Shown here one piece after another: positions 2,157 through 26,501 of a stretch of 64,000 nt of DNA (position 1 is the stretch's first letter; each line of letters opens with the position of its first letter). The DNA is taken from contig JACRNU010000054.1 of the NCBI GenBank assembly GCA_016234805.1, positions 24,329 to 88,328 of the forward strand. Direction: 5' to 3'. Under the pieces are notes generated by a model. That model had not been told where the DNA came from. It made no database searches and saw only the letters and a program-made list of their open reading frames with translations. The DNA is from Elusimicrobiota bacterium. Its GTDB lineage: Bacteria > Elusimicrobiota > Elusimicrobia > UBA1565 > UBA9628. The position numbers were made by a program, and so were the translations under genes.

Positions 2157-2471
2157 ATGCAAAGCCAAGCCAATCCCATCGTCAGCCTTATCCCCATCAT
2201 CGCGATCTTCCTCATCTTCTACTTCCTGCTCATCCGTCCTCAGCAGAAGGAGGCTGCGACCCACAAAAAGATGCTCGAGGCCTTGAAGAAAGGCGACCGC
2301 GTCCTGACCAACTCCGGCTTCTACGGCGTCATCATGGGGATGAAGGGCGACGACCTCGAGGTGCGCTTCGGGGACTCCGTGAAGCTCCTCATGGCCCGCT
2401 CCGCGGTGACGAGGCTGCTCTCGAGCGAGTCGGGGATGGAGCTTTCGACGGCGAATAAGGAGAAAATCTGA
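2157..2471 (+). CDS. yajC: Preprotein translocase subunit YajC
   Basis: 104 aa with a single N-terminal TM segment and the YajC core LLIRPQQK...GDRVLTNSGFYGVI. It lies immediately upstream of secDF. Confidence 0.85.
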   Translation: MQSQANPIVSLIPIIAIFLIFYFLLIRPQQKEAATHKKMLEALKKGDRVLTNSGFYGVIMGMKGDDLEVRFGDSVKLLMARSAVTRLLSSESGMELSTANKEKI

Positions 2472-2557
2472 TGAAGCTTCGCTTTGCCCCCACAACTACG
2501 CGCCTCCCCGCGGGGGAGGCTTGTGACACCCCCGCGGGGGAGGCTTGTGAATTATGA
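2471..2557 (+). promoter_or_regulatory. Micro-ORF (28 codons, MKLRFAPTTTRLPAGEACDTPAGEACEL) spanning a tandem CCCCGCGGGGGAGGCTTGTGA hairpin; its stop/start codons overlap both neighbours (TGATG with the yajC stop, ATGA with the secD start)
   Basis: The reading frame and overlaps were read directly from the sequence. The palindrome CCTCCCCGCGGGGGAGG places a GGAGG Shine-Dalgarno about 12 nt before the secD ATG, with a complementary CCTCC in the other arm. This is copy 1 of 3 (see findings). Confidence 0.6.
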
Positions 2558-3966
2558 CAAAGCTCCAGATGAAGTGGGGCGGGGTCGGACTCCTGAGCGT
2601 GCTCGCGCTCTTCCTCCTGTACCCGAGCATCAACTGGTACTCGATGGATGCGGCCGAGCGCGAGAAGCTCGAGACCTTCAAGATGAGGCCCAAGTTCCTC
2701 GTCAACTTGGGATTGGACCTCAAGGGCGGGTCCCACCTCCTCATGGAGCTCGACATCGCCAAGCTCGACCCCAAGGCCGACATCCAGGACGCCATGGCGC
2801 GGGCCATCGAGATCATCCGCAACAGGGTGGACCAGTTCGGCGTCTCCGAGCCTCTCATCGCCCGGCAGGGCAAGCGCTGGATCGTGGTCCAGCTCCCCGG
2901 CATCTCGAACGCGGCCGCTGCCAAGGACATCGTGGGCAAGACCGCGCTCCTTGAGTTCCGCATCGTTCAGACGGGAGAGAAGGCCCAGGAGGCCCTGGGC
3001 AAGATCGCGGAGCTCGGCAACCCGTTCGTCGGCGAGTCGGTCTCCACGTCGGCGGCCAAGCTCGTGCCCCAGGGGATGGAGCTCTTCCGCGGCAAGGAGA
3101 GCCAGATCTATCTGCTGAGCTCCACGGTGCCTTTCACGGGCGCGGACCTCGAGACCGCGCGCGTCGAGACCGGCGGCAACTACGGCCTGCCGGTGGTGGC
3201 CTTCAAGTTCAAGCCCGAGAAGGGCAATGAGTTCGCGTCCTTCACCGGCGCCAACGTGCAGAAGAACATGGCCATCGTGCTCGACAGGGTCGTCTTTTCC
3301 GCGCCTGTCATCAAGCAGCGCATCACAGGCGGCTCGGGCATCATCGAAGGCGAGTTCACCATGCAGGACGCGCACGCGCTCTCCATCGTCCTGCGCGCGG
3401 GCGCCCTTCCGGCCCCGGTCAAGATCATCGAGGAGCGCACGATCGGCCCCTCCCTGGGAGAGGACTCCATCAAGGCCGGCCTCATGGCCACCGCCATCGC
3501 AGGCCTCTTCATCTTCGTCTTCATGATCGTCTACTACAAGGGCTCAGGGTTCATCGCGGACATCGCCCTGGTGCTGAACCTCGTCTTCCTCATGGCCGGG
3601 ATGGCCTACTTCGGGGCCACCCTGACCCTGCCCGGCATCGCGGGCATCATCCTGACCATCGGCATGGCCGTGGACGCCAACGTGCTGATCCTCGAGCGCA
3701 TCAAGGAGGAGCTGGCCTTGGGCAAGCCCATCCGCTTGGCCGTGGACGCCGGCTATGAGAAGGCCCTGAGCGCGATCATCGACTCGAACCTGACGACCGT
3801 GTTCACCGCCATCTTCCTGTTCCAGTTCGGCACCGGGCCCATCAAGGGGTTCGCCGTCACCCTGATGATGGGCCTCATGATCAGCATGTTCACCGCCATC
3901 TTCGTGACCAAGCTGATCTACCATACCTATCTCGCCAGCCGCGACGTGGCGGAGTTGAGCATCTGA
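2554..3966 (+). CDS. secD: Protein translocase subunit SecD
   Basis: 470 aa with an N-terminal TM, a periplasmic domain and C-terminal 6-TM bundle motifs (GIAGIILTIGMAVDANVLILERIKEE). Gene order yajC-secD-secF is conserved. Confidence 0.9.
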   Translation: MTKLQMKWGGVGLLSVLALFLLYPSINWYSMDAAEREKLETFKMRPKFLVNLGLDLKGGSHLLMELDIAKLDPKADIQDAMARAIEIIRNRVDQFGVSEPLIARQGKRWIVVQLPGISNAAAAKDIVGKTALLEFRIVQTGEKAQEALGKIAELGNPFVGESVSTSAAKLVPQGMELFRGKESQIYLLSSTVPFTGADLETARVETGGNYGLPVVAFKFKPEKGNEFASFTGANVQKNMAIVLDRVVFSAPVIKQRITGGSGIIEGEFTMQDAHALSIVLRAGALPAPVKIIEERTIGPSLGEDSIKAGLMATAIAGLFIFVFMIVYYKGSGFIADIALVLNLVFLMAGMAYFGATLTLPGIAGIILTIGMAVDANVLILERIKEELALGKPIRLAVDAGYEKALSAIIDSNLTTVFTAIFLFQFGTGPIKGFAVTLMMGLMISMFTAIFVTKLIYHTYLASRDVAELSI

Positions 3967-3968
3967 TC

Positions 3969-4913
3969 ATGCAATTCATCGGCAAGACCACCATCGACTT
4001 CGTCGGCAACCGCTGGAAGCTTTTCCTGCTTTCCGGCTTCCTTGTCGGCGGCTCTATCGTGAGCCTCGCGACCCGGGGGCTCGTGTTCGGCATCGACTTC
4101 ACGGGCGGGACCGTGGTCCAGGTCACCTTCGAAAAGCCCATGAACCTCGGCGACCTGCGCAAGGCCGTAGAGGAGTCCGGCATCCCGGACGCGTCCCTCC
4201 AGAGTTTCCCCAAGACCAACACCTTCTCCATCCGGATGAAGTCCGGGGAGGAGGCGTCCGCGGCGGACATCGAAGTGCAGGTGGCAGCCATCCAGAAGGC
4301 GGTCGGGGAAAACAAGTTCCGCATCGAGAGCCAGGAGTTCGTGGGCCCGGCCGTGGGCAAGCACCTCTACCGGCAGGCCCTGTGGGCCATCGTCCTCTCC
4401 CTGCTCGGCATCATCGTCTACATCGCGTTCCGGTTCGAGAATCCGATCTGGGGCGTGGCCGGCGTGGTCGCCATCGGCCACGATGTGCTCGCCACGCTGG
4501 GCCTGTTCTCCGTCACCGGGTGCGAGGTGGACCTGTTGATCGTCTCCGCCCTGCTGACCATCGCGGGCTACTCCATCAACGACACCATCGTCATCTTCGA
4601 CCGGATGCGCGAGCTCATGAAGCTCTACCGCCACGAGCCGCTCGACGCCACCATCAACCGGGCCGTCAACGAGACCCTGTCGCGCACCATCATCACCAAC
4701 GGCACGGTCTTCACGGTGGTCCTGATCCTGTTCCTCCTCGGCGGCAAGGTCATCCACAACTTCGCCATGGCCATGGTCTTCGGCGCGGTGGTCGGCACCT
4801 ACTCGACCATCGCCATCGCCTCGCCCATGGTATTCGAGTGGTATGTCCGGATGAAGAGGCCGGGGTCTTCACCCCAACCCGCCGGACGTCCTGCGGGCAA
4901 AGCCCGCCGATAG
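3969..4913 (+). CDS. secF: Protein translocase subunit SecF
   Basis: 314 aa with the SecF signature (GIDFTGGT, TLSRTIITNGT) directly after secD. Confidence 0.9.
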   Translation: MQFIGKTTIDFVGNRWKLFLLSGFLVGGSIVSLATRGLVFGIDFTGGTVVQVTFEKPMNLGDLRKAVEESGIPDASLQSFPKTNTFSIRMKSGEEASAADIEVQVAAIQKAVGENKFRIESQEFVGPAVGKHLYRQALWAIVLSLLGIIVYIAFRFENPIWGVAGVVAIGHDVLATLGLFSVTGCEVDLLIVSALLTIAGYSINDTIVIFDRMRELMKLYRHEPLDATINRAVNETLSRTIITNGTVFTVVLILFLLGGKVIHNFAMAMVFGAVVGTYSTIAIASPMVFEWYVRMKRPGSSPQPAGRPAGKARR

Positions 4914-4970
4914 GCAGGTGCCAGGCTTGGACGCAAGTATGGAGCTCCGGTTCAAGCCTGGCACCTGTGC
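4914..4970. repeat. Hairpin repeat GGTGCCAGGCTTGG-N-CCAAGCCTGGCACC (family copy 1)
   Basis: 14-bp near-perfect inverted arms read directly from the sequence. The same stem sequence recurs at 5607-5660 and 61660-61712. Confidence 0.8.
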
Positions 4971-4979
4971 TCCGGCAAT

Positions 4980-5606
4980 ATGAAGAAGATCCGCGGCTTC
5001 AAGCTTTCGGTCCGGCCCAAGGAGGTCCACCGCCTCGCCAGGAAGGCGGGACTCGACCTCGCCCCTTTCGGCGTGGAGCCCCCTCCTGAAGGACGGCCCA
5101 CCGCGGTCTCCGCCGCCGGCGTGGCCGCCCTCTCCAGGGAGATCGACCCGGCTGTCAGGCTCCTGACCCCCGCGGTCCTCTACGAATCCTTCCCGGGCTC
5201 CACCGTCGCCGACGCGTCCATCAAGCTGCTCGCCCCCATCCCGGGCGTGGCCTTCAGCCTGGTCCTGGCCACGCTCGGCGAAAGCATCGGCGCGAAGAAG
5301 CGCGAGCTGGAGGGGAGCGATCCCCCGCGGGCCCGGTTGTGGGCCGTCATCTGCGAGAGCGCCCTGGCTGAGGCGGTGCGGTTCGCGTCCTCCCTCATCG
5401 AGACCGAGGCCGCGCTGGAGAACTGCGAGCTCAGTCCTCTCAACCCTTTGACCGGCAACGAGGCCCTGGCCGCCGCGCTCGACAGGCTGGATTGCTCCAA
5501 GATCGGTGTGAGCCTTGCAGACGACGGGCTGCGGCCCCCGGATTCGACGATCGTGACCCTGAGTTGGCTTTCGAAGTCCCGCGGACGCAACAAGCCGAAG
5601 GCTTGA
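4980..5606 (+). CDS. Hypothetical protein (208 aa), bracketed by two copies of the GGTGCCAGG hairpin
   Basis: An ORF with a plausible start (MKKIRGFKL) that fills the interval between secF and the acyltransferase gene. I recognise no domain; its coding status rests on ORF length and context only. Confidence 0.4.
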   Translation: MKKIRGFKLSVRPKEVHRLARKAGLDLAPFGVEPPPEGRPTAVSAAGVAALSREIDPAVRLLTPAVLYESFPGSTVADASIKLLAPIPGVAFSLVLATLGESIGAKKRELEGSDPPRARLWAVICESALAEAVRFASSLIETEAALENCELSPLNPLTGNEALAAALDRLDCSKIGVSLADDGLRPPDSTIVTLSWLSKSRGRNKPKA

Positions 5607-5660
5607 GGTGCCAGGCCTGGGCGCAGACAGGTCGCACCGGTCCAGACCTGGCACCTGGGC
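5607..5660. repeat. Hairpin repeat GGTGCCAGGCCTGG-N-CCAGACCTGGCACC (family copy 2)
   Basis: Same arm sequence as 4914-4970 with one transition in each arm. It lies immediately 3' of the hypothetical gene. Confidence 0.8.
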
Positions 5661-5678
5661 CTAGTTTCTCCACGCAAG

Positions 5679-7631
5679 ATGCTTAGAGCCATCGCCCCGT
5701 ATCTCGGCTACCTCTACATGACCCTGGTGGGCTGGACCACCCGGTGGCGCGTCCTGGGCGGGGAGCGCAAGGCGGGCTTGAGGCGCTCGGGCCGGCGCTT
5801 CATCTACGCGTTCTGGCACCAGCGGCAGGTCTTTTTCACCTATTCGCACCGGGGCGACAGCGCCAAGGTCCTGGTGAGCCGCAGCAGGGACGGGGAGATC
5901 ATCGCCCGCGTCATGGAGATCTCCCGCATCGGCGCGGCGCGCGGCTCGTCGAGCAGGGGGTTCACGGCCGCCCTCAAGGACATGGCGCGCACCGTGGAGG
6001 AGGGCTTCGACCTCGGCATCACTCCGGACGGGCCCAGGGGGCCGGCCCGAGAGGTCAAATCCGGGGTGGTCTTCCTTGCCCAGAAGCTGGGCATCCCCAT
6101 CCTTCCCATCGCCACTGCGCTCACGAGCAAGCTGGTGTTCAAGAAGAGTTGGGACCTCTTTCAGTTCCCCCTGCCTTTCGGCAGGGGCATCGTGGCCTAC
6201 GGGATGCCCGTCGCGGTGGGCCCGGACGACGATCCCAAGGCCAAGGCCGCGGAGGTCAAGGCGGCCTTGGACCGCGTCACGGACGAGGCGGATGCGGCCG
6301 TGCTCCTGGAGCCGTCTTTCGTCGCGGCGGCCACGGCGCGGTGCGTGGCCCTTCTCTCGACTTTGCTCGCCCCGGTCGTGGCCGCGGGCTTCGCCTTGAA
6401 GATGCTGGCGTCGCCCAGGCGCAAGCTCATGCTTCCGCTGCCCGAGGAATGGAAGGAGCGCACCGGCCGCGTCGACGCGGGCAAGCTCGCGGCCGCTCCA
6501 GCCCGGCCCGTGCTCTGGGTCCACGCGGCCTCGGTCGGCGAGGCGGCCGCGGCCCAGCTCCTCATCGAGCGCGTCCTCGGCCGGAAGGCTCCTCCCTCGG
6601 TGGTCGTCACCTGCAACACCGCGGCGGGCCGCAGCCGGGCCCTCAAGATCCCGGGAATCTCAGCCGCGTGGCTGGCCCCGCTCGACAGCCTTCCCACGGT
6701 GGGCAGGTTCCTCGACGCGGTCAGGCCATACGCACTGCTCCTCATCGAGACCGAGCTCTGGCCAGGGATGCTCGAGGCCGCGTTCCGGCGCGGTCTGAAG
6801 GTCGGCCTGGCCAACGGGCGGCTTTCTCCAAGGAGCTTCGGAGCGTACCGGCTCTTCAAGCCCCTCATCAGCCCGTTCCTCAGGCGTCTGGACCGCGTCG
6901 CGGCCCAGACCCCGTCGGACGCTGAGCGTTTCCTGGCCTTGGGCGCGGACCGGGACAGGGTGGCCGTGTGCGGCAACATGAAGTTCGACCTCATCGCTCC
7001 GCCGGCGGGTCTTGACCGGACCCGGGAGTCCCTGCGCCGGCTCGGATGGGAGGCCAGCCCTCTGCTGGTGGCGGGCAGCACGCATCCCGTGGAGGAGGAG
7101 GCCGTGGTGGCCGCCTTCCAGCAGCTCCGACGCAGCCATCCAGGCCTTCGGCTCGTGCTCGCTCCGAGGCACCCGGAGCGCGGCGCGGACGCGGCAGCCA
7201 TGCTCACTCGCTTGGGCGTGCGCTTCGCGCTCTGGTCGAGGCTGGGAGAGGGACTGGGGGACCGCGAGTGCCTGCTGATCGATGTCATGGGCGTCCTGCC
7301 CGCGTGGTACGCTTTCGCCTCGGTCTGTTTCGTGGGCGGGACCCTGGTCCCGGTCGGAGGCCACAACCTCCTCGAGCCCGCCGCGCACGGCAAGCCTTCC
7401 GTGTTCGGCCCCCACACCTTCCACACCGAGCAGTCAGCCCTGGCCCTTGCCAGGTCGGGCGGCGGAGTGAGGGTGCGGGGCCCAGAAGAACTGGCTGCCG
7501 CGTTCGGCAAGCTCCTTGCCGAGCCCGAATTCAGCAGGAAGGCGGGAGAGAAGGCTCGGGAGACCCTGGCCGGCCTGCAGGGCGGCATCGAGAGGACCCT
7601 CGCCCACCTGGGTCCCTGCCTCGAAGTATAG
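5679..7631 (+). CDS. waaA: Fusion protein: DUF374 lysophospholipid-acyltransferase-like domain + 3-deoxy-D-manno-octulosonic acid (Kdo) transferase
   Basis: The N-terminal ~220 aa (FIYAFWHQRQ...SRDGEI...ITPDGPRGP) resemble DUF374. The C-terminal ~425 aa (VLWVHAASVGEA...SPLLVAGSTHP...RLVLAPRHPER...FVGGTLVPVGGHNLLEPAA) resemble GT30 Kdo transferase. Confidence 0.8.
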   Translation: MLRAIAPYLGYLYMTLVGWTTRWRVLGGERKAGLRRSGRRFIYAFWHQRQVFFTYSHRGDSAKVLVSRSRDGEIIARVMEISRIGAARGSSSRGFTAALKDMARTVEEGFDLGITPDGPRGPAREVKSGVVFLAQKLGIPILPIATALTSKLVFKKSWDLFQFPLPFGRGIVAYGMPVAVGPDDDPKAKAAEVKAALDRVTDEADAAVLLEPSFVAAATARCVALLSTLLAPVVAAGFALKMLASPRRKLMLPLPEEWKERTGRVDAGKLAAAPARPVLWVHAASVGEAAAAQLLIERVLGRKAPPSVVVTCNTAAGRSRALKIPGISAAWLAPLDSLPTVGRFLDAVRPYALLLIETELWPGMLEAAFRRGLKVGLANGRLSPRSFGAYRLFKPLISPFLRRLDRVAAQTPSDAERFLALGADRDRVAVCGNMKFDLIAPPAGLDRTRESLRRLGWEASPLLVAGSTHPVEEEAVVAAFQQLRRSHPGLRLVLAPRHPERGADAAAMLTRLGVRFALWSRLGEGLGDRECLLIDVMGVLPAWYAFASVCFVGGTLVPVGGHNLLEPAAHGKPSVFGPHTFHTEQSALALARSGGGVRVRGPEELAAAFGKLLAEPEFSRKAGEKARETLAGLQGGIERTLAHLGPCLEV

Positions 7632-7705
7632 CCGTTTTAGTACAATCAGCGGATGACCGAGCCTGGCGAGGAAATGGTCGATTCCGAGGTCGTGGGAGAG
7701 AGACC

Positions 7706-8299
7706 ATGACGCTCTCCGCCTCGTCGTTGACTCTCATCATCTGCGCGGCCTCTGCCGCGCTCCCGGCTGTCACGCTGGCTGCCCCGGCCGCGGGTTCGAA
7801 GTCCTCGGCCAGGAAGGAATCCCTTAAGACCATGGAGCTCAAGAGTCCCGCATTCGAGAACAACGGCCCCATCCCCAAGGCGCACACCTGCTCCGGGGAG
7901 GATCTCTCCCCTGCCCTGGCCTGGTCCGGGGTTCCCAAAGGCGCCAAGTCCCTGGCCCTCATCATGGACGATCCCGACGCTCCGGTCGGCACCTGGGTGC
8001 ACTGGGTGCTCTACGACCTCCCTGCGGATTCCACGGGCCTGCCCCAGGGCTTCCCCAGGACCGAGGCTTTCCCCGACGGGTCCAGGCACGGCCTCTGCTG
8101 GGGCGTCGAGGAATTCAGCCGTGTGGGCTACAACGGGCCCTGCCCTCCTCCTGGCAAGCAGCACCGGTACGAGTTCAAGCTGTACGCGCTCAAGGAGCCG
8201 CTCGGCCTGCCCCCCAAGGCGACCAAGGCTGAAGTGCTCAAGGCCATGGAGGGCCGCGTTCTGGGTCAGGCGCGGCTCATCGGCACCTTCAAGCGATAG
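7706..8299 (+). CDS. YbhB/YbcL-family PEBP (Raf-kinase-inhibitor-like) protein, secreted
   Basis: Signal peptide followed by the PEBP core motifs (IMDDPDAP...WVHWVLYDLP...GYNGPCPPPGKQHRYEFKLYAL). The start was taken at the ATG at 7706, in frame with the longer listed ORF. Confidence 0.8.
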   Translation: MTLSASSLTLIICAASAALPAVTLAAPAAGSKSSARKESLKTMELKSPAFENNGPIPKAHTCSGEDLSPALAWSGVPKGAKSLALIMDDPDAPVGTWVHWVLYDLPADSTGLPQGFPRTEAFPDGSRHGLCWGVEEFSRVGYNGPCPPPGKQHRYEFKLYALKEPLGLPPKATKAEVLKAMEGRVLGQARLIGTFKR

Positions 8300-8304
8300 G
8301 CGCC

Positions 8305-10098
8305 GTGAAGAGACTCATCCCCTGGCTCGTCGCGGCCGCGACCTTCCTCACCTTCATCCCGGCCCTGGAAAGCCTGTTCGTGAACTGGGACGACACCGCC
8401 AATTTCCTGGAGAACCCGGACTTCAAGAACGCCGGGTTGGGTGAGCTGCGTTGGATGTTCTCCACCTTCCACCTGGCGCATTACCAGCCCGTGACCTGGC
8501 TGACTTGGGGGTTGGACAAGGCGCTTTGGGGCACGAACCCCTTCGGCTACCACCTGACGAACCTCGTCATCCATTGCGCCACGGCCGCGATCTTCTGCCT
8601 GCTATGCCGCCGCGTCCTCGACCGCGTCATGCCTGAGAGTTCGGATTTCCACCCGTACGCCGCGGCTTGGGCCGCCCTGCTTTTCGCGGTGCACCCATTG
8701 CGGGTCGAGGCCGTGGCATGGGCCACGGAGCGCAGGGAGCTCCTGTCCTCGTTCCTGTTCCTCTCGGCCGCGGCCCTGTATCTGAGGCCTCGCGGCCGAA
8801 GCCATGAGGCCCCGAAGCCTGGGCTGCATTGGGTCCTGGTCCTGGGGGCCTTGGCCATGCTGTCGAACGTCCGCACGGTCTCCCTGCCCCTGGCCCTGCT
8901 TCTGCTCGACTACTATCCCCTCGGCAGGCTCTCGGCAACGAGGCCGGGCGCTGACCCGGGAGTCTGGAAGGAAAAGGCCCCTTTCTTCCTGCTGGCTTTC
9001 GGCGTGGGACTGATCGGCCTCCTGGCCCAGGCCACCACTTCCACCCTCATCCCGGTGGCCAAGGCCGGGTTCGTCTCAAGAGCGGTCCAGTCTTGCTTCG
9101 GGGTGGGCTTCTACCTGTGGAAATCGCTGGCTCCGTTCGGGCTGTCGAATTGGTACGGCGATTCCTATCTCGAAGCGCGCGCTCCTGTGGCCGTGCTCGG
9201 AGCGGCGGCAGCGGTCTTCTTGACCGCCGGGCTCGCTTGGCGGGCGAAGACCGGCCGTGGGAAAGCCCTGCTCGCGTGCTGGCTCTGGTATCTGGTCACC
9301 CTTTTCCCCTCCCTGGGGATCGTCAAGTCCGGCCGTCAGATCGTGGCGGATCGTTACAGCTATCTTCCCTGCATCGCCTTCGCCCTGCTGGCCGCGGCCG
9401 GTCTGTGCAAGCTGAGGACCCTCTCAAGGGAAGGCCATGTCAGGCGCTGGGTCTTCATCGGGGTCGCGGCGGGCGCCGTGGCATGCCTGCCGCTGCTCTC
9501 CGGCCTGACCTGGCAACAGTGCCGCGTATGGAACGACTCGGTCAGCCTGTGGTCAAGGGCTTTTGCCATCGACCCTCGCTCCGTGTTCATCCGCACCAAC
9601 TTCGGCATCGCGCTTCTCCAGGCCAGGAGATTCCAGGAGGCGGTGAAGGCCTTCGAGACCATCACCGAGGACGCGGTGGATGGGATGGACCCGGATTCCG
9701 GCAGGTCGTTCTTCAGCTTCATCCGGTTCCTTTCTGCCATGGCGCACAACAACTGGGGCGTGGATCTCATGACCCGTGGCCGGCCCGTCGAGGCCGTGCC
9801 TCATTTTCAGAAGGCCCTGTTCTACAATCCGGAGTCGGAGAGAGGCCACTTCAGCCTGGGTCTGGCCCTGCTGCGCTCCGGAAGGCTCGATGAAGCCATC
9901 CCGAGGTTCGAGGCCGCGGTGAAGGCCTCTCCGGATCTTCTGGATGGCAGGCTCCATCTCGGCGAGGCATTGGCCCTCAAGGGGAGGAGGAAGGACGCGG
10001 AAGCCCAGTTTCGAGCTGTTCTGCGTCTGGCTCCGGACCCGATGAGAGCCGCCAAAGCCCGGGAAGGACTGCGGCGGCTCGGCCGGGTGGATCGATGA
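8305..10098 (+). CDS. TMTC-like (DUF1736 / GT-C fold) polytopic membrane protein with C-terminal TPR repeats; putative protein O-glycosyl/mannosyltransferase (paralog 1)
   Basis: About 11 TM segments with a DD motif in the first loop (FVNWDDTANFLENP) and a WMFSTFHLAHYQPV motif. The C-terminal third is TPR-like (YNPESERGHFSLGLALLRSGRLDEAI...). Confidence 0.6.
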   Translation: MKRLIPWLVAAATFLTFIPALESLFVNWDDTANFLENPDFKNAGLGELRWMFSTFHLAHYQPVTWLTWGLDKALWGTNPFGYHLTNLVIHCATAAIFCLLCRRVLDRVMPESSDFHPYAAAWAALLFAVHPLRVEAVAWATERRELLSSFLFLSAAALYLRPRGRSHEAPKPGLHWVLVLGALAMLSNVRTVSLPLALLLLDYYPLGRLSATRPGADPGVWKEKAPFFLLAFGVGLIGLLAQATTSTLIPVAKAGFVSRAVQSCFGVGFYLWKSLAPFGLSNWYGDSYLEARAPVAVLGAAAAVFLTAGLAWRAKTGRGKALLACWLWYLVTLFPSLGIVKSGRQIVADRYSYLPCIAFALLAAAGLCKLRTLSREGHVRRWVFIGVAAGAVACLPLLSGLTWQQCRVWNDSVSLWSRAFAIDPRSVFIRTNFGIALLQARRFQEAVKAFETITEDAVDGMDPDSGRSFFSFIRFLSAMAHNNWGVDLMTRGRPVEAVPHFQKALFYNPESERGHFSLGLALLRSGRLDEAIPRFEAAVKASPDLLDGRLHLGEALALKGRRKDAEAQFRAVLRLAPDPMRAAKAREGLRRLGRVDR

Positions 10099-11783: not shown

Positions 11784-11789
11784 TATAAT
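11781..11789 (+). promoter_or_regulatory. Extended -10 element TGATATAAT overlapping the stop of the TMTC-like gene, upstream of the GT9 gene
   Basis: Perfect TGnTATAAT, the second of three identical copies in the window. Confidence 0.4.
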
Positions 11790-11835
11790 CCCCTCCTCCG
11801 CTCCCGCCGCGGATGCCGCGACGGTCGTCGTCGAC

Positions 11836-13365: not shown

Positions 13366-13374
13366 GCGAGGCCG

Positions 13375-13455: not shown

Positions 13456-13472
13456 TGGCGGGGCTGTTGCCA

Positions 13473-15221: not shown

Positions 15222-15293
15222 GTTTCTCCCTGGTCGAAAAAGCTATGGAGAAGCTACCAAATCGTGACAGTGAAGGATATATCTTCCGGTAAA

Positions 15294-15302
15294 TGATAGA
15301 AT
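15294..15302 (+). promoter_or_regulatory. Extended -10-like element TGATAGAAT about 10 nt upstream of the GT4 ATG (15313)
   Basis: TGnTAnAAT with one mismatch to TATAAT, in the divergent intergenic region. It would give a near-leaderless transcript. Confidence 0.35.
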
Positions 15303-15312
15303 CCAAGGGTTG

Positions 15313-19054: not shown

Positions 19055-20055
19055 TGCCTGGCACCTCCTTGCCGCGCAAGGTCCTCGTCATCCAGCTGCG
19101 CCGCATCGGAGACGTCCTGATGGCGACCCCGGCCGTGGCCGCTCTTAAGAAGCGCTACCCCGCGGCGGCCGTGGATTTCCTGGTGGAGCCTCCGTCGGAC
19201 GAGGTCCTCGCGGGCAACCCCGACATCAGCCGGGTGCTCGTCTATCACTCGAACGGGTGGCGGGATTATCTCGCGTGGCTTCTACGCGTCCGCTCCGAGC
19301 GCTACGATTGGGTCGTGGATTTCATGGGCAACCCGAGGAGCGCCTTCCTGGCCGCGGCCAGCGGCGCTTCCCTGCGCGCCGGGCCGGCCCACGTCGGGCA
19401 CCGCTGGGCCTACAACCTGCGCATGGTGCAGTCCTCCACGACCCACTACGCGGGGCGGGAGAAGATCCGCCTTCTTTCAGGGCTCGGGGTCCCGGACACG
19501 CACACGGACATCCTTCCCAAGGTCTACCTCGGCACGCCGAAAGCCCCGGACCCCGCGGGACCCATCGCCCTGGCCCCCGCTTCCCGCAAGCCCACGCGCC
19601 AGTGGCCCTCCCGGCACTATGTCGCGCTGGGGAGGATGCTCCACGAGCGCTACGGGTGCGGCATCACCGTGCTGTGGGGCCCGGGAGAGAAAGCCCTGGC
19701 CGAGAAGGTCGCCTCCGGCATCGGGAAGGCTGCTTCAGCGCCCGAGACCAGGGACCTGCGGGAGGCCGCCCGCGTCCTGGCCGGCTGCCGATTGTTGGTC
19801 ACGAACTGCAGCGGGACCAAGCATCTCGCGGTCAGCCTCGGCGTGCCCACGGTCACGATCCACGGGTCGAGCGACCCGGCGAGCTGGACCCCTCCGGACC
19901 CCAGGCATCTGGCGGTGCGGCGCCAGGACCTCTCCTGCATGGGCTGCGGGTTCAACGAGTGCCCGCGGACGCCCGACTGTCTCGACGGGCTCTCTCCCGA
20001 GACGGTCTTCGGCGCGGCCCGCGGATTGCTGGACTCTATCTATGGACCTTCCTAA
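19054..20055 (+). CDS. Glycosyltransferase family 9 (LPS heptosyltransferase, WaaC/WaaQ-like)
   Basis: Motifs KVLVIQLRRIGDVLMATPAVAALKKRYP and LLVTNCSGTKHLAVSLGVPTVTIHGSS. Confidence 0.75.
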   Translation: MPGTSLPRKVLVIQLRRIGDVLMATPAVAALKKRYPAAAVDFLVEPPSDEVLAGNPDISRVLVYHSNGWRDYLAWLLRVRSERYDWVVDFMGNPRSAFLAAASGASLRAGPAHVGHRWAYNLRMVQSSTTHYAGREKIRLLSGLGVPDTHTDILPKVYLGTPKAPDPAGPIALAPASRKPTRQWPSRHYVALGRMLHERYGCGITVLWGPGEKALAEKVASGIGKAASAPETRDLREAARVLAGCRLLVTNCSGTKHLAVSLGVPTVTIHGSSDPASWTPPDPRHLAVRRQDLSCMGCGFNECPRTPDCLDGLSPETVFGAARGLLDSIYGPS

Positions 20056-21118
20056 GCTGCGTTCGAAGCTCAAAGAGAAGCTCGCGGGCCGGACCTTTCT
20101 CGGCGCCGCGGCCCTGGCTTACGGCGCGGCCGTGCGTGCCCGCCGCAAGCTCTATGACTGGCGCGTGCTCAAGTCGGCCAGGCTGGGCTGCCGGGTCGTG
20201 TGCTTCGGCAACCTCACGACCGGGGGCACGGGCAAGACCCCGGCCGTGGCTCTGGCCGCGCAGACCTTGCGCGAGCGCAAGTATCGGGTCGTGATCCTGA
20301 GCCGAGGCTACGGGCGGGAGGGCAGCAAGGAGATCTCAGTGCTCAGGGACGGGCGCACGCCTCCGTGGACGGAATGCGGGGACGAGCCCTGGATGCTCCA
20401 CCAGGCCCTGCAGGGGCTCGACATCCCCATCCTCGTGGCCCCGGACCGGGTGGCCGCGGGCGGCCAGGCCATGTCCTTCTATGGTCCAGAAGTCATCCTG
20501 CTCGACGACGGTTTCGGGCACCTGGCCCTGCGCCGCGACCTTGACGTGCTCATGGTCCACGCGGTCCGGCCGTTCGGGGATCGGCGCCTCCTGCCCTACG
20601 GTGACCTGCGCGAACCCCTGGGGTCGTTGTCCCGGGCCAAGCTCGTGGTGCTGACGCACGCGGACCTCGTGACTCCCTCCGAGCTCGACCTTCTTAAAGA
20701 TGAGATCCGGGCACTGAGTCCCGGGGCCGCGGTCGTGGAGTCCTCCCACAAGCCGGACTACCTTCTTGAAGCCTCCTCGGACCGCAGGTTGGAACCGGAG
20801 AGTCTCCGCGGGAAGAAGGCCGTGGCGCTCAGCGGCATCGCGGACCCCTCCCAGTTCGAGGACCTGCTGGCGTCTCTTGGCGTGGAGCTGGTCCAGCGCT
20901 GGCGCTTCCCGGACCACCACCCGTTCTCGGAGGAAGAGCTGCGTTCCATCGACACTGCCCGGCAGGGCCTGCCCGTGATCGCCACCATGAAGGACCTCGT
21001 CCGCCTGCCCCCCGCGTGGCGCGATATCCTGGGCTCCGGGCTGCACGGCTTGGCCATCAAGCTCGAGATCACCAAGGGCAAGGCCACCTGGGCCAAGATG
21101 CTCACGGATGGGCTTTGA
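20042..21118 (+). CDS. lpxK: Tetraacyldisaccharide 4'-kinase
   Basis: Motifs VVCFGNLTTGGTGKTPAVALAAQTL, ILSRGYGR and ILLDDGFGH. The start was taken at the ATG (MDLPKLRSKL) within the longer listed ORF. Confidence 0.85.
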   Translation: MDLPKLRSKLKEKLAGRTFLGAAALAYGAAVRARRKLYDWRVLKSARLGCRVVCFGNLTTGGTGKTPAVALAAQTLRERKYRVVILSRGYGREGSKEISVLRDGRTPPWTECGDEPWMLHQALQGLDIPILVAPDRVAAGGQAMSFYGPEVILLDDGFGHLALRRDLDVLMVHAVRPFGDRRLLPYGDLREPLGSLSRAKLVVLTHADLVTPSELDLLKDEIRALSPGAAVVESSHKPDYLLEASSDRRLEPESLRGKKAVALSGIADPSQFEDLLASLGVELVQRWRFPDHHPFSEEELRSIDTARQGLPVIATMKDLVRLPPAWRDILGSGLHGLAIKLEITKGKATWAKMLTDGL

Positions 21119-21178
21119 CCGCATGATATCCCGCATGGAATCCGACAGTGTTTCCCGGATGTATTTCTGGAGGATTCC

Positions 21179-22045
21179 ATGCGGAAAGGTTTGACGCTGG
21201 TCGTTCTCATGAAGAGCCTCCTGATGTCGTCCCTGGTATCCTTCATGATGTCCCCCTGCCTCGCCGCGGACATCTTCACCGCCTCCTTCACCGACCCGCG
21301 CGAGCTCATCGCGCCGGGGGTGGAGCCTTCGTCCGGCGCGGCCGTGCCGGGGTTCCCGGAGAAGCTGGTCTTCGACGTTTCCTGGGGCCTCATCGGGGTC
21401 GGACAGTCCACGCTGGAGATGAGCCGCATGGTGGATTTCAACGGCCGGCCCGCCTACGAGATCGTCTCCAGGGCCTACTCTAACGGCTTCTGCAACACCT
21501 TCTATAAGGTCCGCGATGAGAACTACGCCTGGCTCGACGCGGCCAGCCTGAGTTCCCTGGGCTACCTGAAGAACCTCCGGGAGGGAAACTTCTACCGGGA
21601 CGAGTGGGTGCTCTTCGACCATGCTTCCAAGCGCTACCTGGCCAAGTGGGCCGGCCGGGATCACAACTACAGCGTGCGGCAGGGCACCATCCCGGTTCCG
21701 GTGCAGGACATCCTTTCGAGCATGTATTACATCAGGACACAGGAGCTCAAGGAGGGCGCTGAGATCATCCTCGACGTCAACACGAAGGAGAATTGGCCGC
21801 TCGTGGTGAAGGTGGTCAAGAGGACCAAGGTGAAGGTCCCGGCCGGCAAGTTCGACACTTTTCTCCTCGAGCCCTTCATGCGCAAGGAGGGCATCTTCGT
21901 GCAGAAGGGCAAGCGCCTGCGGATCTGGGTGACCGCGGACGAGCGCAAGATCCCTGTCCTCATGAAGGTCGAGGTCTTCTTCGGCCACGTCACCGCGGCC
22001 TTGTCCACCATCGGAGACGGGACCCCGGCGCGCGGCAGGGAATGA
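21179..22045 (+). CDS. DUF3108-domain secreted protein
   Basis: Signal peptide plus resemblance to the DUF3108 beta-barrel-like fold. Confidence 0.6.
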   Translation: MRKGLTLVVLMKSLLMSSLVSFMMSPCLAADIFTASFTDPRELIAPGVEPSSGAAVPGFPEKLVFDVSWGLIGVGQSTLEMSRMVDFNGRPAYEIVSRAYSNGFCNTFYKVRDENYAWLDAASLSSLGYLKNLREGNFYRDEWVLFDHASKRYLAKWAGRDHNYSVRQGTIPVPVQDILSSMYYIRTQELKEGAEIILDVNTKENWPLVVKVVKRTKVKVPAGKFDTFLLEPFMRKEGIFVQKGKRLRIWVTADERKIPVLMKVEVFFGHVTAALSTIGDGTPARGRE

Positions 22046-22051
22046 TATAAT
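22043..22051 (+). promoter_or_regulatory. Extended -10 element TGATATAAT overlapping the DUF3108 stop, immediately 5' of the hldE start
   Basis: Third perfect copy of TGATATAATC. The predicted transcription start coincides with the in-frame ATG at 22059, implying a leaderless mRNA. Confidence 0.45.
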
Positions 22052-22052
22052 C

Positions 22053-23072
22053 ATGCCCATGAAGAAGCATCCCGCGGTGCTGACGGCCCGAGAACGCCGC
22101 CGCCTGAAGGGCTATGTCCGGCAGTTCTCCGGCAAGAGGGTCCTGGTGGTCGGGGACCTCATGCTCGATGAGTTCATCCGCGGGGCGGTGCACCGCATCT
22201 CCCCGGAGGCGCCGGTCCCGGTCGTGCAAGTCCGGGCCGAGAGCTACGTCCCGGGCGGGGCGGGCAACGTGGCCCGCAACCTGGCCGCCCTCGGGGCGGG
22301 CGTCGTGGTCGTGGGCGTGGTGGGCGAGGACGCGGCCGCGGAGCGCCTGCGCTCGGATTTCGCGGGCCACGGCATCGACGTGGCCGGCCTGTTGTCGGAC
22401 TCCGGGAGGGTGACCTCCCAGAAGTGCCGGATCATCGCGGAGCACCAGCAAGTCGTCCGGTTCGACCGGGAGACCACGGGCCCGCTGTCCGGCGCCTCGG
22501 AGCGCGAACTCCTGCGCCGCATCCCCGCGGCCGTGGACCGCGCACACGCCGTGGTCCTCTCCGACTACGGCAAGGGCGTTGTGACGCCCGCGGTCGTCAA
22601 AGCCGTCCTCTCCCGGGCCAAAGGCCGGCGATTGCCGGTCACCGTGGACCCCAAGCCGGAGAACTTCAACCTCTACCGCGGCGTCACCTGCCTGACGCCC
22701 AACGTGCACGAGGCTTGGGCCGGGATGCGGCGCCATCCCGAGCCGGGAAGAGGGGCTCTCGACGCGCTGGGACGGAGCATCCTCTCAGGGCTCGGATGCG
22801 CGTCCCTCATCATCACCCGCGGCCCCGAAGGCATGAGCCTCTTCAAGCGGGGCGGGGCCGGAGTCATCCACATCCCCACCGAGGCGCGCGAGGTCTACGA
22901 CGTGACCGGGGCGGGCGATACGGTCATCTCCGTGCTCACCCTGGGCCTGGCCAGCGGAGCCTCCATCGAGGCCGCCGCGGTCGTGGCCAACTGCGCTGCG
23001 GGCATCGTGGTGGGCAAGCTCGGCACCGCCACGGTCTCATCGGAGGAGCTCATCAAGGCCCTGGCCCAATGA
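22053..23072 (+). CDS. hldE: D-glycero-beta-D-manno-heptose-7-phosphate kinase (HldE/RfaE domain I only, PfkB family)
   Basis: Motifs VLVVGDLMLDEFIRGAVHRISPEAPVPVV and DVTGAGDTVISVL. No adenylyltransferase domain is attached. The true start may be the second ATG at 22059. Confidence 0.8.
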   Translation: MPMKKHPAVLTARERRRLKGYVRQFSGKRVLVVGDLMLDEFIRGAVHRISPEAPVPVVQVRAESYVPGGAGNVARNLAALGAGVVVVGVVGEDAAAERLRSDFAGHGIDVAGLLSDSGRVTSQKCRIIAEHQQVVRFDRETTGPLSGASERELLRRIPAAVDRAHAVVLSDYGKGVVTPAVVKAVLSRAKGRRLPVTVDPKPENFNLYRGVTCLTPNVHEAWAGMRRHPEPGRGALDALGRSILSGLGCASLIITRGPEGMSLFKRGGAGVIHIPTEAREVYDVTGAGDTVISVLTLGLASGASIEAAAVVANCAAGIVVGKLGTATVSSEELIKALAQ

Positions 23073-23887
23073 GGAAAAGGGACGCGGTCCAGGTCGGCGG
23101 GACCGCGGTCATCATCCCTGCCCGGTGGGGATCCACGCGCTTCCCCGGCAAGGTCCTCGCCCTTCTCGGAGGCAAGCCCATCGTCCGGTGGTGCCACGAG
23201 GCCGCGGTCGCGTCCCGGATCGGCCCTGTGGCCGTGGCCACGGACGACCTCGAAGTCGTCCGGGCCGTGGAAGCCTTCGGAGGCCGCGCTGTCATGACCC
23301 CGAAAAACCTGGCCTCGGGCACGGACAGGGTCCTTGCGGCCCTCAAGCGGCTGCGGTGGTCCCCCCGCTTCGTGGTCAACCTGCAGGGAGACGAGCCCCT
23401 GATCTCCCCGTCGGGTTTGAGGAGCCTCGATCGCCTCCTGCGCTCCGCGGGCGCCGACGTGGCGACCCTCGTCACCCCCTTGAAGGGCGCGGAACGCCTC
23501 CAGCGGCCCGACGTGGTCAAGGCCGTCCTGGCCAAGGACGGGCGGGCCCTTTACTTCTCCCGTTCCCCTGTCCCGTACCGCCGCCAGCCCCCTCCGGCGA
23601 GAGGAGTACGGCTTTCGCCTTCGGGGACGGCGGTCCCTTGCCGCCAGGAAGAGCCCCGGCGCTGGGAGCACATCGGCATCTACGGGTACAAGGCCGCATC
23701 CCTGCGCCGCTTTGTCTCCCTTCCCCCCTCCCCGCTCGAGCGTGCCGAGTCGCTCGAACAGCTCCGGGCCCTGGAGGATGGGATGAGCATCTACGCCGCG
23801 GTGGTTCCCGCCCGCGGCGTGGCCATCGACACGCCGGCGGACCTGGCGCAAGCAGAACGACTGATACAGAAAAGAAGGAGCCCTTGA
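23069..23887 (+). CDS. kdsB: 3-deoxy-manno-octulosonate cytidylyltransferase (CMP-Kdo synthetase)
   Basis: Motifs [39 protein letters not shown] and HIGIYGY. It carries a 57-bp repeat copy in frame at 23588-23648. Confidence 0.85.
23588..23648. repeat. 57-bp repeat family copy D (reverse orientation), in frame inside kdsB
   Basis: The reverse complement reads CCTGGCGGCAAGGGACCGCCGTCCCCGAAGGCGAAAGCCGTACTCCTCTCGCCGGAGGGGG. It encodes ...[19 protein letters not shown]... in a loop that is enlarged relative to typical KdsB sequences. Confidence 0.75.
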
Positions 23888-23949
23888 TGAAACGACGAAT
23901 CGTCCCCCACGATGCTCGCCTCCCCGCGGGGGAGGCTCGCGGCATATGA
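23887..23949 (+). promoter_or_regulatory. Micro-ORF (20 codons, [20 protein letters not shown]) spanning the CCTCCCCGCGGGGGAGG hairpin; stop/start overlaps on both sides (TGATG with the kdsB stop, ATGA with the pyrG start)
   Basis: Copy 2 of the coupling cassette. It shows both nucleotide-level and peptide-level similarity to 2471-2557. Confidence 0.6.
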
Positions 23950-25598
23950 CCAAATACATTTTCGTCACGGGCGGAGTCGTCAGCTCCCTGGGCAAGGGGA
24001 TCAGCGCGGCCTCGCTCGGCAAGCTCCTCGAGGCCCGGGGCCTGTCGGTGGCCATGCTCAAGTGCGACCCCTACATCAACGTGGACCCGGGCACCATGAA
24101 TCCCTTCCAGCACGGCGAGGTCTACGTCACGGAGGACGGGGCCGAGACCGACCTCGACCTGGGCCACTACGAGCGCTTCCTCAACAAGGAGATGCACCAC
24201 ACCAACAACATCACTGCCGGCAGGATCTACGAGACCGTGATCGCGCGCGAGCGGCGCGGGGACTTCCTCGGGATGACGGTGCAGGTCATCCCCCACATCA
24301 CCGACGAGATCAAGAGCCGCTTTAAGCTCCCGGCCAAGGGCGCCGACATCGTCATCATCGAGATCGGCGGCACCGTGGGCGACATCGAGAGCCTGCCCTT
24401 CCTCGAGGCGGCCCGGCAGATGGGGCTCGAGGCGGGCCGCGAGAACACCCTCTACATCCACGTGACCCTCGTGCCCTTCATCAAGGCCTCGGAGGAGCTC
24501 AAGACCAAGCCCACCCAGCACTCCGTGGCCAAGCTCCGGGAGCTCGGCATCAGCCCGGACATCATCGTGTGCCGCAGCGAGAAGCCCCTCTCCTCGGAGA
24601 TCAAGGCCAAGATCAGCATGTTCTGCAGCGTGCCCAAGGAGTCCGTGGTGGACGCCCCGGACGTGGCCAGCATCTACGAGGTCCCCATGGTCTTCGACAA
24701 GCAGGGCCTTGACGACCAGGTCGTCATGCTCCTGCGCCTGCGCTCGCGGGCCAAGGACCTCGAGAGCTGGAGCACGGTCGTCCACCGCCTCAAGAACCCC
24801 AAGCACGAGGTCCAGATCGCGCTCGCCGGCAAGTACACGGACTACAAGGATGCCTACAAGTCCGTCCACGAGGCCCTGGTGCACGGCGGCATCGCCAATG
24901 ACTGCCGGATCACGGTCCGCTATCTGGACACGAGCTCGCCTTCCATCCTCGAGGACCTGCACGGGGTCCACGGCATCCTTGTTCCCGGCGGGTTCGGCGA
25001 CCGCGGCATCGAGGGCAAGGTCAAGGTGACGGGCCTGGCGCGCGAGGAGCGCATCCCCTTCCTCGGGCTGTGCCTGGGCCTTCAGATCGCGGTGGTGGAG
25101 TTCGGGCGCAGCGTGCTCAAGCTCTCGGGCGCCCACTCCACCGAGTTCGACCCCAAGACCCGCTACCCTGTCATCGATCTCCTGCCCGAGCAGAAGGCCG
25201 TGCAGGCCAAGGGCGCGAGCATGCGCCTGGGGACCTACGAGTGCTGTCTCAAGAAAGGCAGCCTCGCGCACAAGGCGTATGGGACCGCCACGGTTCAGGA
25301 GCGCCACCGCCACCGCTACGAGGTGAACAACAAGTTCCGCAAGCTCTACGAGGACGCCGGGCTCCAGGTGACCGGGACCTACGCGCCCAAGAACCTGGCC
25401 GAGATCGTGGAGCTCCGCGACCACCCCTGGTTCCTGGCGGCCCAGTTCCACCCCGAGTTCAAGAGCCGTCCCGAGAGCCCGCACCCGCTGTTCCGCGACT
25501 TCGTGGCCGCGGCCCTGGCCCGCTCGCGCGGCTTGGACCGGCGCCCGGCCGGCGTCAAGCCCGCGGGCCGGGGCTTCTCCGGCGAGGACCATGGCTAA
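23946..25598 (+). CDS. pyrG: CTP synthase
   Basis: Motifs [19 protein letters not shown], a glutamine-amidotransferase C-domain ([20 protein letters not shown]) and HRHRYEVN. Confidence 0.95.
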
Positions 25599-26451
25599 GA
25601 GCATCACGGTCCGGATCGGCAAGGTCCTGGTCGGCAACGATTCCCCGGCTGTCTTCATCGCGGGCCTCTGCTGCCTCGAGTCCGAGGCCATCCTGCGCGT
25701 GGTGGCCAAGGGCCTCAAGGCGGCCCTCTCCCGCGCCGCGGTTCCTTTCATCTTGAAATGCTCGTTCGACAAAGCCAACCGCACCTCGCTGAAGTCCTTC
25801 CGCGGACCGGGGCCGCGCGAGGGGCTGGCGATCCTCCGGAAGGTCGCCTCGGAGTTCGGCGTTCCCGTCCTGACCGATGTGCACGACCCCGGACAGGCCG
25901 AGCTCGCCGCGGAGTATGTGGACGCTCTCCAGGTGCCGGCATTCCTCTGCAGGCAGACGGACCTCCTGGTCGCCTGCGGCCGCACGGGCCTGCCGGTGAA
26001 CGTCAAGAAGGGCCAGTTCCTCTCTCCCTGGGAGATGGCCCGCGCCGTGGAGAAGATCGAGTCCACGGGCAACCACCGCATCCTCCTAACCGAGCGCGGC
26101 ACCTTCTTCGGCTACGGCAACCTCGTGGTGGACATGCGCTCCCTCGACATCATGAGGGGACTGGGGTACCCCGTGGTCTTCGACGCCACCCACTCGGTCC
26201 AGCTCCCGGCCAGCCGCGGCTCCGAGACCGGGGGCGACCGGGAGCGGATATGGGGGCTCGCTCGGGCCGCCGCTGCCGCGGGCGTGGCCGCGGTCTTCCT
26301 CGAGACGCATCCTCGTCCCGAGAAAGCCCTTTCGGACGGCCCCAACGCGCTGCATCTCAAGGATGTGCCGGAGTTCGTGAGGCAGATTTGCGCCATCGAT
26401 GGGCTGGTGAAGAAGCAGGGATTCATCAAACGAGGGAGGAGGCAGTCATGA
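25591..26451 (+). CDS. kdsA: 2-dehydro-3-deoxyphosphooctonate aldolase (Kdo-8-phosphate synthase)
   Basis: Motifs [44 protein letters not shown] and KKGQF. Confidence 0.9.
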
Positions 26452-26501
26452 AACGGCATTCGCCCCCACACTACTTCCCTCCCCGTGGGGGAGGGAAGTA
26501 G
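26448..26501 (+). promoter_or_regulatory. Micro-ORF (17 codons, [17 protein letters not shown]) spanning the CTTCCCTCCCCGTGGGGGAGGGAAG hairpin; ATGA overlap with the kdsA stop, ending 5 nt before the next ATG
   Basis: Copy 3 of the coupling cassette. It shares the ATGAAAC...CCCCCAC...CCTCCCCGYGGGGGAGG core. Confidence 0.55.

Follow-up and report, generated by a model that had tools for sequence, protein, structure and literature searches.

A 64,000-nucleotide stretch of an Elusimicrobiota bacterium genome (contig JACRNU010000054.1, forward-strand positions 24,329 to 88,328; the whole stretch is called the window here) contains three short cassettes of 57–86 nt, situated exactly at the junctions between yajC and secD, kdsB and pyrG, and kdsA and a zinc-ribbon gene. 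The cassettes are probably copies of a non-autonomous mobile repeat of one groundwater Elusimicrobiota clade, one that integrates at (A)TGA and survives by being translationally neutral at start codons. They belong to a family of insertions with a structurally constrained hairpin, and through each runs a small open reading frame (micro-ORF) which is closed at the start of the downstream gene and whose peptide is not conserved.

By direct reading of the window, the three cassettes lie where the first-pass annotation of this DNA had placed them and share the nucleotide core it had described, here ATGAAAC..CCCCCAC..CCTCCCCGYGGGGGAGG. The 17-nt core CCTCCCCGYGGGGGAGG has three exact matches and one with two mismatches (2527–2543), the latter being part of a 24-nt tandem duplication at locus 1; this count of four was reached by none of 100 shuffles. 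CCCCCAC by itself is not enriched in the window, and in all three cassettes it stands 8–9 nt before the hairpin. When a covariance model of the family was run on the 64 kb, exactly these cassettes and no further match were returned. The sequences are ..GGAGaaaatcTGATGAagcttcgctttgCCCCCACaactacgcgCCTCCCCGCGGGGGAGGcttgtgac[accccgcgggggaggcttgtgaatt]ATGAcaaag at locus 1 (yajC/secD), ..GGAGcccttGATGAaacgacgaatcgtCCCCCACgatgctcgCCTCCCCGCGGGGGAGGctcgcggcatATGAccaaa at locus 2 (kdsB/pyrG) and ..GGGAGGAGGcagtcATGAaacggcattcgCCCCCACactacttcCCTCCCCGTGGGGGAGGgaagtagcacATGAaatgc at locus 3 (kdsA/zinc-ribbon gene). Their features are as follows.

2459–2474, plus strand: locus 1 left junction, with a Shine-Dalgarno (SD) sequence GGAG at 2459–2462, the yajC stop TGA at 2469–2471 and the left ATGA at 2471–2474.
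2471–2557, plus strand: locus 1 cassette with its 28-codon micro-ORF, the TGA of which (2555–2557) overlaps the secD ATG (2554); covariance model score 72.9 bits.
2487–2493, plus strand: locus 1 conserved unpaired CCCCCAC.
2498–2524, plus strand: locus 1 hairpin, core CCTCCCC-GCG-GGGGAGG at 2503–2519, outer pairs imperfect.
2530–2553, plus strand: locus 1 tandem duplication (24 nt), repeating 2506–2529 from the 3' half.
23877–23890, plus strand: locus 2 left junction, with SD GGAG at 23877–23880, the kdsB stop TGA at 23885–23887 and the left ATGA at 23887–23890.
23887–23949, plus strand: locus 2 cassette and micro-ORF (20 codons), its TGA overlapping the pyrG ATG (23946); 66.7 bits.
23904–23910, plus strand: locus 2 CCCCCAC, followed by the hairpin at 23918–23936 with GGAGG at 23931–23935.
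26434–26451, plus strand: locus 3 left junction, with the native SD GGGAGGAGG at 26434–26442 and, at 26448–26451, the ATGA that combines the kdsA stop and the left ATG.
26448–26501, plus strand: locus 3 cassette with its 17-codon micro-ORF, closed by the TAG at 26499–26501; 76.1 bits.
26463–26469, plus strand: locus 3 CCCCCAC, with GGAGG at 26490–26494.
26505–26508, plus strand: locus 3 right ATGA, where the start of the zinc-ribbon gene (26505–26894) is restored.

At each locus the left ATG overlaps the stop of the upstream gene (TGATG at loci 1 and 2, ATGA at locus 3), and the left ATGA is preceded 6–7 nt upstream by an SD of its own (GGAG) within the 3' end of that gene. The micro-ORFs opened there comprise 28 codons at locus 1 (2471–2557; MKLRFAPTTT...), 20 at locus 2 (23887–23949; MKRRIVPH...) and 17 at locus 3 (26448–26501; MKRHSPPH...), in agreement with the 17–28 codons and the MK(L/R)(R/H) start given in the first-pass annotation, which had likewise noted the upstream overlap. 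Its account of the downstream side stood in part. The micro-ORF TGA overlaps the downstream ATG at loci 1 and 2, as claimed; the gap at locus 3 is 3 nt and not 5, the TAG at 26499–26501 being followed by the ATG at 26505. The GGAGG was indeed found spaced as a downstream SD, for which 10–12 nt had been proposed: it lies 10 nt upstream of the downstream ATG in all three cases. The direct repeat ATGA(AA) flanks every window cassette and, taken with the native SD on the left, is what an insertion looks like directly after an original stop/start overlap.

The reading frame of CCCCCAC differs among all three window copies, and conservation is therefore at the level of nucleotides rather than peptides, as had been proposed. 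This bears on the idea that the cassettes are three independent or paralogous leader peptides, attenuator-type upstream ORFs (uORFs) with a functional amino acid sequence. Such an origin would fit the MK(L/R)(R/H) beginnings and the position of these short ORFs immediately upstream of genes. It is scarcely credible: past codon 4 the window peptides are unrelated, the conserved nucleotides being read in three frames; throughout the family the peptide shifts with indels and the nucleotides stay conserved; the cassettes are present or absent among close relatives; and neither a terminator/antiterminator architecture nor an Rfam family was found. The rejection of independent leader peptides in the first-pass annotation was thus upheld. 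Screening of the whole window against Rfam at gathering thresholds gave nothing, and a permissive search of locus 3 yielded generic hairpin chance matches far below threshold. A scan for tRNA and tmRNA genes at the window found none, and the scan for intrinsic terminators did not flag the cassette hairpins, which are without a T-run.

Relatives of the family were sought in other genomes, whose loci are cited here by L numbers. PyrG and SecD of the window are 90–91% identical to proteins of Elusimicrobiota metagenome-assembled genomes (MAGs). A pattern scan of GTDB species genomes showed the same cassette in the groundwater Elusimicrobia MAGs JACRDT, JACRDQ and JACQWX, among the matches listed; a metagenome scan added four further members, and a viral scan contained no family member. 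The first GTDB pattern was too loose and also matched CCCCCACCCC...GGGGAGGGG repeats, unrelated to the cassettes, from Sphingomonadales, Bacteroidales and Thermaceae; of the matches listed, only those in Elusimicrobia MAGs are members of the family. Among the matches listed (L001–L118), the Sphingomonadales repeats have a similar G/C hairpin theme (CCCCCACCCC(N)CCCCTCCCCGNNGGGGAGGGG), and rumen and gut Bacteroidales carry ACGTTACCCCCACCCTAAATCCCTCCCCTCGGGGGAGGGACTT, with similar repeats in Thermaceae.

An alignment of 14 copies gave the consensus CCTGATGAAACGGCATTNGCCCCCACNACTACTTGCCTCCCCGYGGGGGAGGCAAGTGACATGA, and the covariance model (R1) identified 33 copies at E<1e-8 in the 231 kb searched. 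The unit of about 52–56 nt consists of ATGAAACGGCAT, 2–3 nt, CCCCCAC, (A)ACTAC, a 12–14 bp hairpin with the core CCUCCCC-GYG-GGGGAGG, and GTGA(Y). About 24 of the roughly 34 catalogued copies, including all three of the window, are associated with a start codon and oriented like the gene. The downstream genes are unrelated (secY, purF, fabF, hypD, atpF, atpG, lptF/G-like, eutN-like and others). Copies at random positions, keeping neither the ORF nor the overlaps, had been named in the first-pass annotation as the contrary pattern; the opposite was found in the relatives, with some 30 more copies, most of them at gene starts and co-oriented. Copies found away from starts include one preceding a tRNA (L077), another at the TAA that ends a convergent gene (L141 5140–5209) and three upstream of an SD (L130, L136, L139).

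Copies are single and do not form tandem arrays of the whole unit; the only repetition is partial, of 14–24 nt at the right end, and Tandem Repeats Finder (TRF) reported nothing. The locus 1 duplication, 21 nt of which are exact (2506–2526 equal to 2530–2550), also went unreported by TRF, its two short copies scoring below threshold. It brings a second GGAGG (2539–2543) to 10 nt before the secD ATG, and it is derived, because the orthologous cassette of a related MAG (L140) has a single copy. Right-end duplications of this kind occur in four independent copies (window 2506–2553; L030 3894–3969 and 5822–5894; L020 5527–5620), each adding a G-rich or GGAGG segment just before the start, and may be due to slippage induced by the hairpin or to selection favouring a free SD. 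At L020 5464–5599 and L039 2064–2201, two loci of MAG JACRDT whose flanks are unrelated, the same head-to-head doublet of about 125 nt was seen; the covariance model gave no doublet in the window. The doublet is made up of a copy of each of two subfamilies, B and A, joined by a 13-nt near-palindromic spacer (GGAAGTTCC), a REPIN-like behaviour.

That the cassettes were inserted is evident from orthologous junctions with and without them. At kdsB–pyrG the window is filled, and the corresponding sites of L119 (JACRDQ, PyrG 90%; ..GGAGGatgaaATGAcgaaa) and L120 (91%; ..GGAGaaagcgATGAcaacc) are plain ATGA overlaps, with an SD-to-ATGA spacing of 6 nt identical to that of the window's left junction. 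At kdsA–zinc-ribbon the cassette is present in the window, L119 and L120 and missing from L121 and L122 (PyrG 81%), where the junction reads GGAGcgtccgtcATGAag (..GGAGcgtccgtcATGAagtgt); the zinc-ribbon product of the window is 85% identical to its orthologues in L120 and L119, which start MKC.NCGQDNKD. At yajC–secD the cassette is found in the window, L140 and L141, and L142 (SecD 75%) is empty, with GGAGG..TAG, 7 nt and ATG; the left ATGA of locus 1 (2471–2474) is collinear with filled L140 and marks the context in which secD originally started. A fourth junction, between secF and the next gene, is filled only in L141 and empty in the window, L140 and L142. From these comparisons it follows that the cassettes are insertions of different ages, in support of the earlier proposal of a DNA-level element, similar to a miniature inverted-repeat transposable element or to a repetitive extragenic palindromic (REP) sequence, that is translationally "stitched in". 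The pyrG copy, absent from relatives with 90–91% PyrG identity, is the youngest of the window insertions.

In L120 (6366–6490) the orthologous zinc-ribbon cassette has about 52 nt extra, exactly in the hairpin loop (CCTCCCCGTG[...]GGGGAGGG), which may be another small element targeting that loop. Some insertion sequence elements are known to target REPs.

Every copy of the family possesses a hairpin of 12–14 bp with a 3-nt loop, and RNA folding of the three window loci gave the hairpin in each, as expected from the first reading. That of locus 3 is perfect, with 14 bp (26471–26484 paired with 26488–26501), a GTG loop and a folding z of -3.2. Folding energies of whole cassettes range from -23 to -31 kcal/mol. 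In the 33-copy alignment 95.3% of cells were paired and compensatory changes were present in 8 of 13 pairs (48 cells), values that none of 500 shuffles reached, with slid controls 52–68% paired; covariation was also examined using RNAalifold. Subfamily A has the stem CCTCCCC/GGGGAGG and subfamily B CCCCCCC/GGGGGGG, so that in the latter the U-A pair of CCUCC/GGAGG is replaced by C-G and the stem is all G/C. Constraint is thus stronger on the helix than on the sequence GGAGG as such. An additional pairing of CCCCCAC with the loop and 3' arm (GTGGGGG) was rejected, as CCCCCAC/CCCCCGC does not covary with the GTG/GCG loop. The SD is held in a GC-rich helix of 12–14 bp and, at -23 to -31 kcal/mol, this is not a marginally stable helix of the RNA-thermometer type.

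The translational anatomy was tallied for 21 copies associated with starts, which represent about 17 independent insertions. In 14 of these the micro-ORF ends on a stop that overlaps the start (ATGA or GTGA); in three the stop lies 1 nt before the start and in four 3 nt before it. All copies (21/21) thus have the micro-ORF frame closed on or shortly before the start, as against 10/42 for the other two frames, and this holds across distances of 53, 56, 57, 58, 59, 60, 61, 76, 83 and 110 nt between the left ATG and the start. Closure is achieved in different ways according to length: by the gene's own ATGA where this is 2 mod 3, by the TGA of GTGAC where it is 1 mod 3, and by a TAG, TAA or TGA 3 nt upstream where it is 0 mod 3. 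Two further copies are in-frame N-terminal fusions, and none crosses the start out of frame. In 19/21 copies GGAGG or GGGGG stands 8–11 nt ahead of the start; the remaining two (fabF in L073 and the gene after secF in L141) have the junction ..AAG|TGA, where a GTG start overlaps the micro-ORF TGA. In all 17 copies having an upstream ORF, the left ATG overlaps the stop of that ORF, which ends in the frame of the left (TGA)TGA, as fits a left ATGA that is the native junction. The micro-ORF sequence itself changes with frame and indels, its nucleotides remaining conserved.

These features suggest how an insertion could be tolerated. The element would integrate at (A)TGA and leave ATG(A) on both sides, and survivors would be found almost entirely at ATGA/TGATG starts, in gene orientation, because the element is translationally neutral there. 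The host's original SD and ATG would open a 17–28-codon ORF reading through the element and its hairpin and stopping on the restored start (ATGA or GTGA) or 1–3 nt earlier, with the 3' arm of the hairpin placing GGAGG 8–10 nt before that start. Ribosomes entering at the original SD and ATG, or, as would often be the case, coupled to translation of the upstream gene, would open the hairpin as they pass, terminate and then start again on the downstream gene with the help of the freshly exposed GGAGG; expression of the host gene would be preserved and the insertion tolerated. The coupling mechanism of the first-pass annotation, in which a ribosome melts the hairpin, terminates and reinitiates, appears to fit this anatomy.

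The same anatomy might be taken to mean that the cassette is a domesticated regulatory module, with an SD-sequestering hairpin opened only by translation of the micro-ORF and thereby setting or regulating downstream output, mobility being the means of its spread. Variants would invoke strict coupling or stoichiometry, sensing of translation capacity, or a response to elongation factor P (EF-P) through Pro-Pro codons. The hairpin is very stable and always includes an SD-like arm, the micro-ORF frame is kept in all 21 copies, the old insertions at secD and the zinc-ribbon gene have persisted across lineages 10–16% apart in protein sequence, and there are copies in the stoichiometry-sensitive operons containing atpF, atpG and rplO-secY. 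CCCCCA is moreover read as PPx in most copies, but the Pro-Pro codons are lost by frame in two of the three window copies. The same genes function without a cassette in close relatives, the target genes have no functional relation, and copies before a tRNA, at the end of a convergent gene or in head-to-head doublets have nothing to regulate. We therefore consider a regulatory role rather unlikely. As to the codons themselves, the commonest frame gives MKRHxPPQLLASP... (e.g. window 26448–26501, L094, L059, L119), where Pro-Pro about six codons into the micro-ORF is a potential EF-P-dependent pause site; the motif is absent from loci 1 and 2 of the window through their difference in frame.

A second alternative dispenses with translation altogether. 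The cassettes would be REP-like DNA elements pure and simple, the hairpin serving as a signal for single-stranded DNA transposition or for mRNA stability, the downstream genes initiating independently on GGAGG, and gene starts being merely tolerated sites. In its favour are the REP-like stem of 12–14 bp with a 3-nt loop, the doublets repeated as a 125-nt unit at two loci, the copies away from gene starts and a CTAC/GTAG-like motif at the stem foot (PMC3733652). Independent initiation is nevertheless improbable where the SD is held closed by a hairpin of -23 to -31 kcal/mol, and the left ATG retains its native SD at normal spacing. The frame closure in 21/21 against 10/42, attained across length variants by TGA, TAG or TAA, indicates selection on translation through the element. 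This alternative is accordingly regarded as distinctly unlikely.

The survival of an (A)TGA-targeting repeat at gene starts can be accounted for by the composition of these genomes. In gene calls on 99 kb of related loci (L119, L140, L141, L142, L121), 44 of 88 starts were ATGA (50%), 66% were NTGA, and about 2% of the DNA was intergenic. Non-coding ATGA sites on both strands numbered 44 at starts versus 20 intergenic. With integration at ATGA and purging of intragenic insertions, about 69% of the copies would be expected at starts, and about 24/34 were seen there. Since ATGA site numbers and purifying selection together reproduce the distribution, active recognition of start codons, which was considered, is not required. 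This agreement also suits a purely REP-like element and speaks against a regulatory module. It also illustrates how selfish DNA finds room where half of the genes start with ATGA and some 2% of the DNA is intergenic.

Several observations weigh against the interpretation of the cassettes as translationally neutral (A)TGA insertions. Translation of the downstream gene could simply be lowered by a hairpin with -23 to -31 kcal/mol, the hairpins of subfamily B are all G/C and without GGAGG, and in the two AAG|TGA copies the SD spacing is only 3 nt. The boundaries of the element are ambiguous: its 5' end and its target are both ATGA, so that a target duplication of 3–4 nt is indistinguishable from an ATGA-initiated unit beside a start codon. 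The flanking repeat is ATGA (4 nt) in most copies, ATG (3 nt) in some, TGA in two and a 13–14 nt duplication in one, and the element end is inseparable from the duplication. The four nucleotides before the left ATG (C-Y-T-N) and the SD are more conserved than at ordinary genes. Before atpF and atpG in the ATP synthase operon (L020 2816–2890 and 6943–7017), the two cassettes have 13 nt in common (TGAGGAGCGCTTC) ahead of their ATG, and the SD region may thus be carried or converted by some units. The subfamily B copy at L030 (5822–5894, within 5790–5920) is flanked by the 13–14 nt direct repeat, GAGTTCATCAAAG, and continues in frame into an IspA-like ORF, whose former 5' end is left as a separate short ORF that stops at the ATGA of the element, a misfit with simple ATGA duplication. 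Finally, no transposase was found near the densest copy clusters, where Pfam scans of the surrounding ORFs gave ATP synthase, AFOR and similar proteins. Unlike miniature inverted-repeat transposable elements, singlets have no terminal inverted repeats, beginning with ATGAAACGG and ending in CAAGTGA, and inverted ends are present in doublets only.

A separate intergenic hairpin repeat, unrelated to the cassettes, also occurs in the window. It consists of GGTGCCAGGCYTGG, 17–21 nt and CCARRCCTGGCACC, in three copies (4915–4967, 5605–5657 and 61658–61710). The first fills the spacer between secF and the next gene, which in the relatives is short or different.

Among known systems, MIRUs (mycobacterial interspersed repetitive units) are the closest analogue, and the concept of a mobile start-codon repeat with a coupled small ORF is already known from them. 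MIRUs are intergenic repeats containing small ORFs whose ends overlap the flanking ORFs, in the same orientation and without dyad symmetry (PMC4473831); they are apparently mobile, inserting at start codons with the ORF coupled at -4 nt, so that the host gene is affected as little as possible (PMC12548453, where Supply et al. 1997 is cited). Both are short (40–100 bp), dispersed intercistronic repeats oriented like the flanking genes, with a small ORF overlapping the neighbours' stop and start (-4 nt, ATGA). The Elusimicrobiota element differs in being built on a covarying 12–14 bp hairpin which holds the downstream SD, dyad symmetry being lacking in MIRUs (PMC4473831). The hosts are Elusimicrobiota in the one case and Actinomycetota in the other, the comparison being made with the published MIRU description. 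MIRUs typically form tandem arrays (variable number tandem repeats, VNTRs), whereas the copies described here are single, with only partial right-end duplications, and also form head-to-head doublets. This would be a second, phylogenetically remote case of mobile DNA residing on start codons and exploiting translational coupling, its insertions documented by filled and empty sites.

REP and REPIN elements are mobilised by REP-associated tyrosine transposases (RAYTs; Y1, IS200/IS605-like). They resemble the Elusimicrobiota family in being short GC-rich stem-loops (REP stem 5–13 bp, loop 2–4 nt) with a conserved foot motif, in having subfamilies with compensatory stem changes, in occurring as singlets and as head-to-head dimers repeated as units, and in varying between close relatives. 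Flanking ORFs sometimes receive their stop codons from REP termini (PMC3733652). Most REPs are situated downstream of genes, in contrast to the Elusimicrobiota element, which lies mostly at start codons and has a conserved 5' extension of about 30 nt (ATGAAACGGCAT..CCCCCAC). CTAC stands 5' of the stem in most copies (equivalent to GTAG at the 3' side on the other strand); it is partly paired, of opposite polarity to the canonical 5'-GTAG-stem, and absent in locus 2 (GATGC). Nor was a RAYT gene linked to the element in the scans of ORFs around the densest copy clusters. The element unites two types usually kept apart, a REP/REPIN-like hairpin with doublets and a MIRU-like micro-ORF niche. We would tentatively suggest that it represents an undescribed REP/REPIN-like hairpin family, convergent with MIRUs and specialised on the ATGA junctions of ultra-compact genomes, which would carry a complete "translational bypass" (micro-ORF, in-frame stop and SD inside the hairpin) and be moved by an enzyme with (A)TGA specificity, possibly of the Y1/HUH type. 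If this is true, camouflage at start codons would be a general strategy that selfish DNA in bacteria has evolved more than once, and the cassettes would be natural portable coupling modules. In practice, gene callers will mis-annotate such junctions, leaving spurious intergenic gaps or wrong starts, for example at element-created GTG starts.

Rickettsia palindromic elements (RPEs) and intragenic REPs are likewise selfish palindromic repeats that survive in translated regions with the host product kept functional. RPEs are in frame and translated within the host protein; the Elusimicrobiota element is a separate micro-cistron, except for the two in-frame fusions in relatives. Engineered bicistronic-design (BCD) cassettes and natural coupled uORFs have a leader ORF that ends at the gene start with the SD inside the leader, and translation of the leader removes inhibitory structure (PMC12548453). 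They are fixed regulatory designs rather than dispersed mobile repeats; the cassette has the compact design of a natural portable coupling and ribosome-binding unit and could be tested as a synthetic-biology part.

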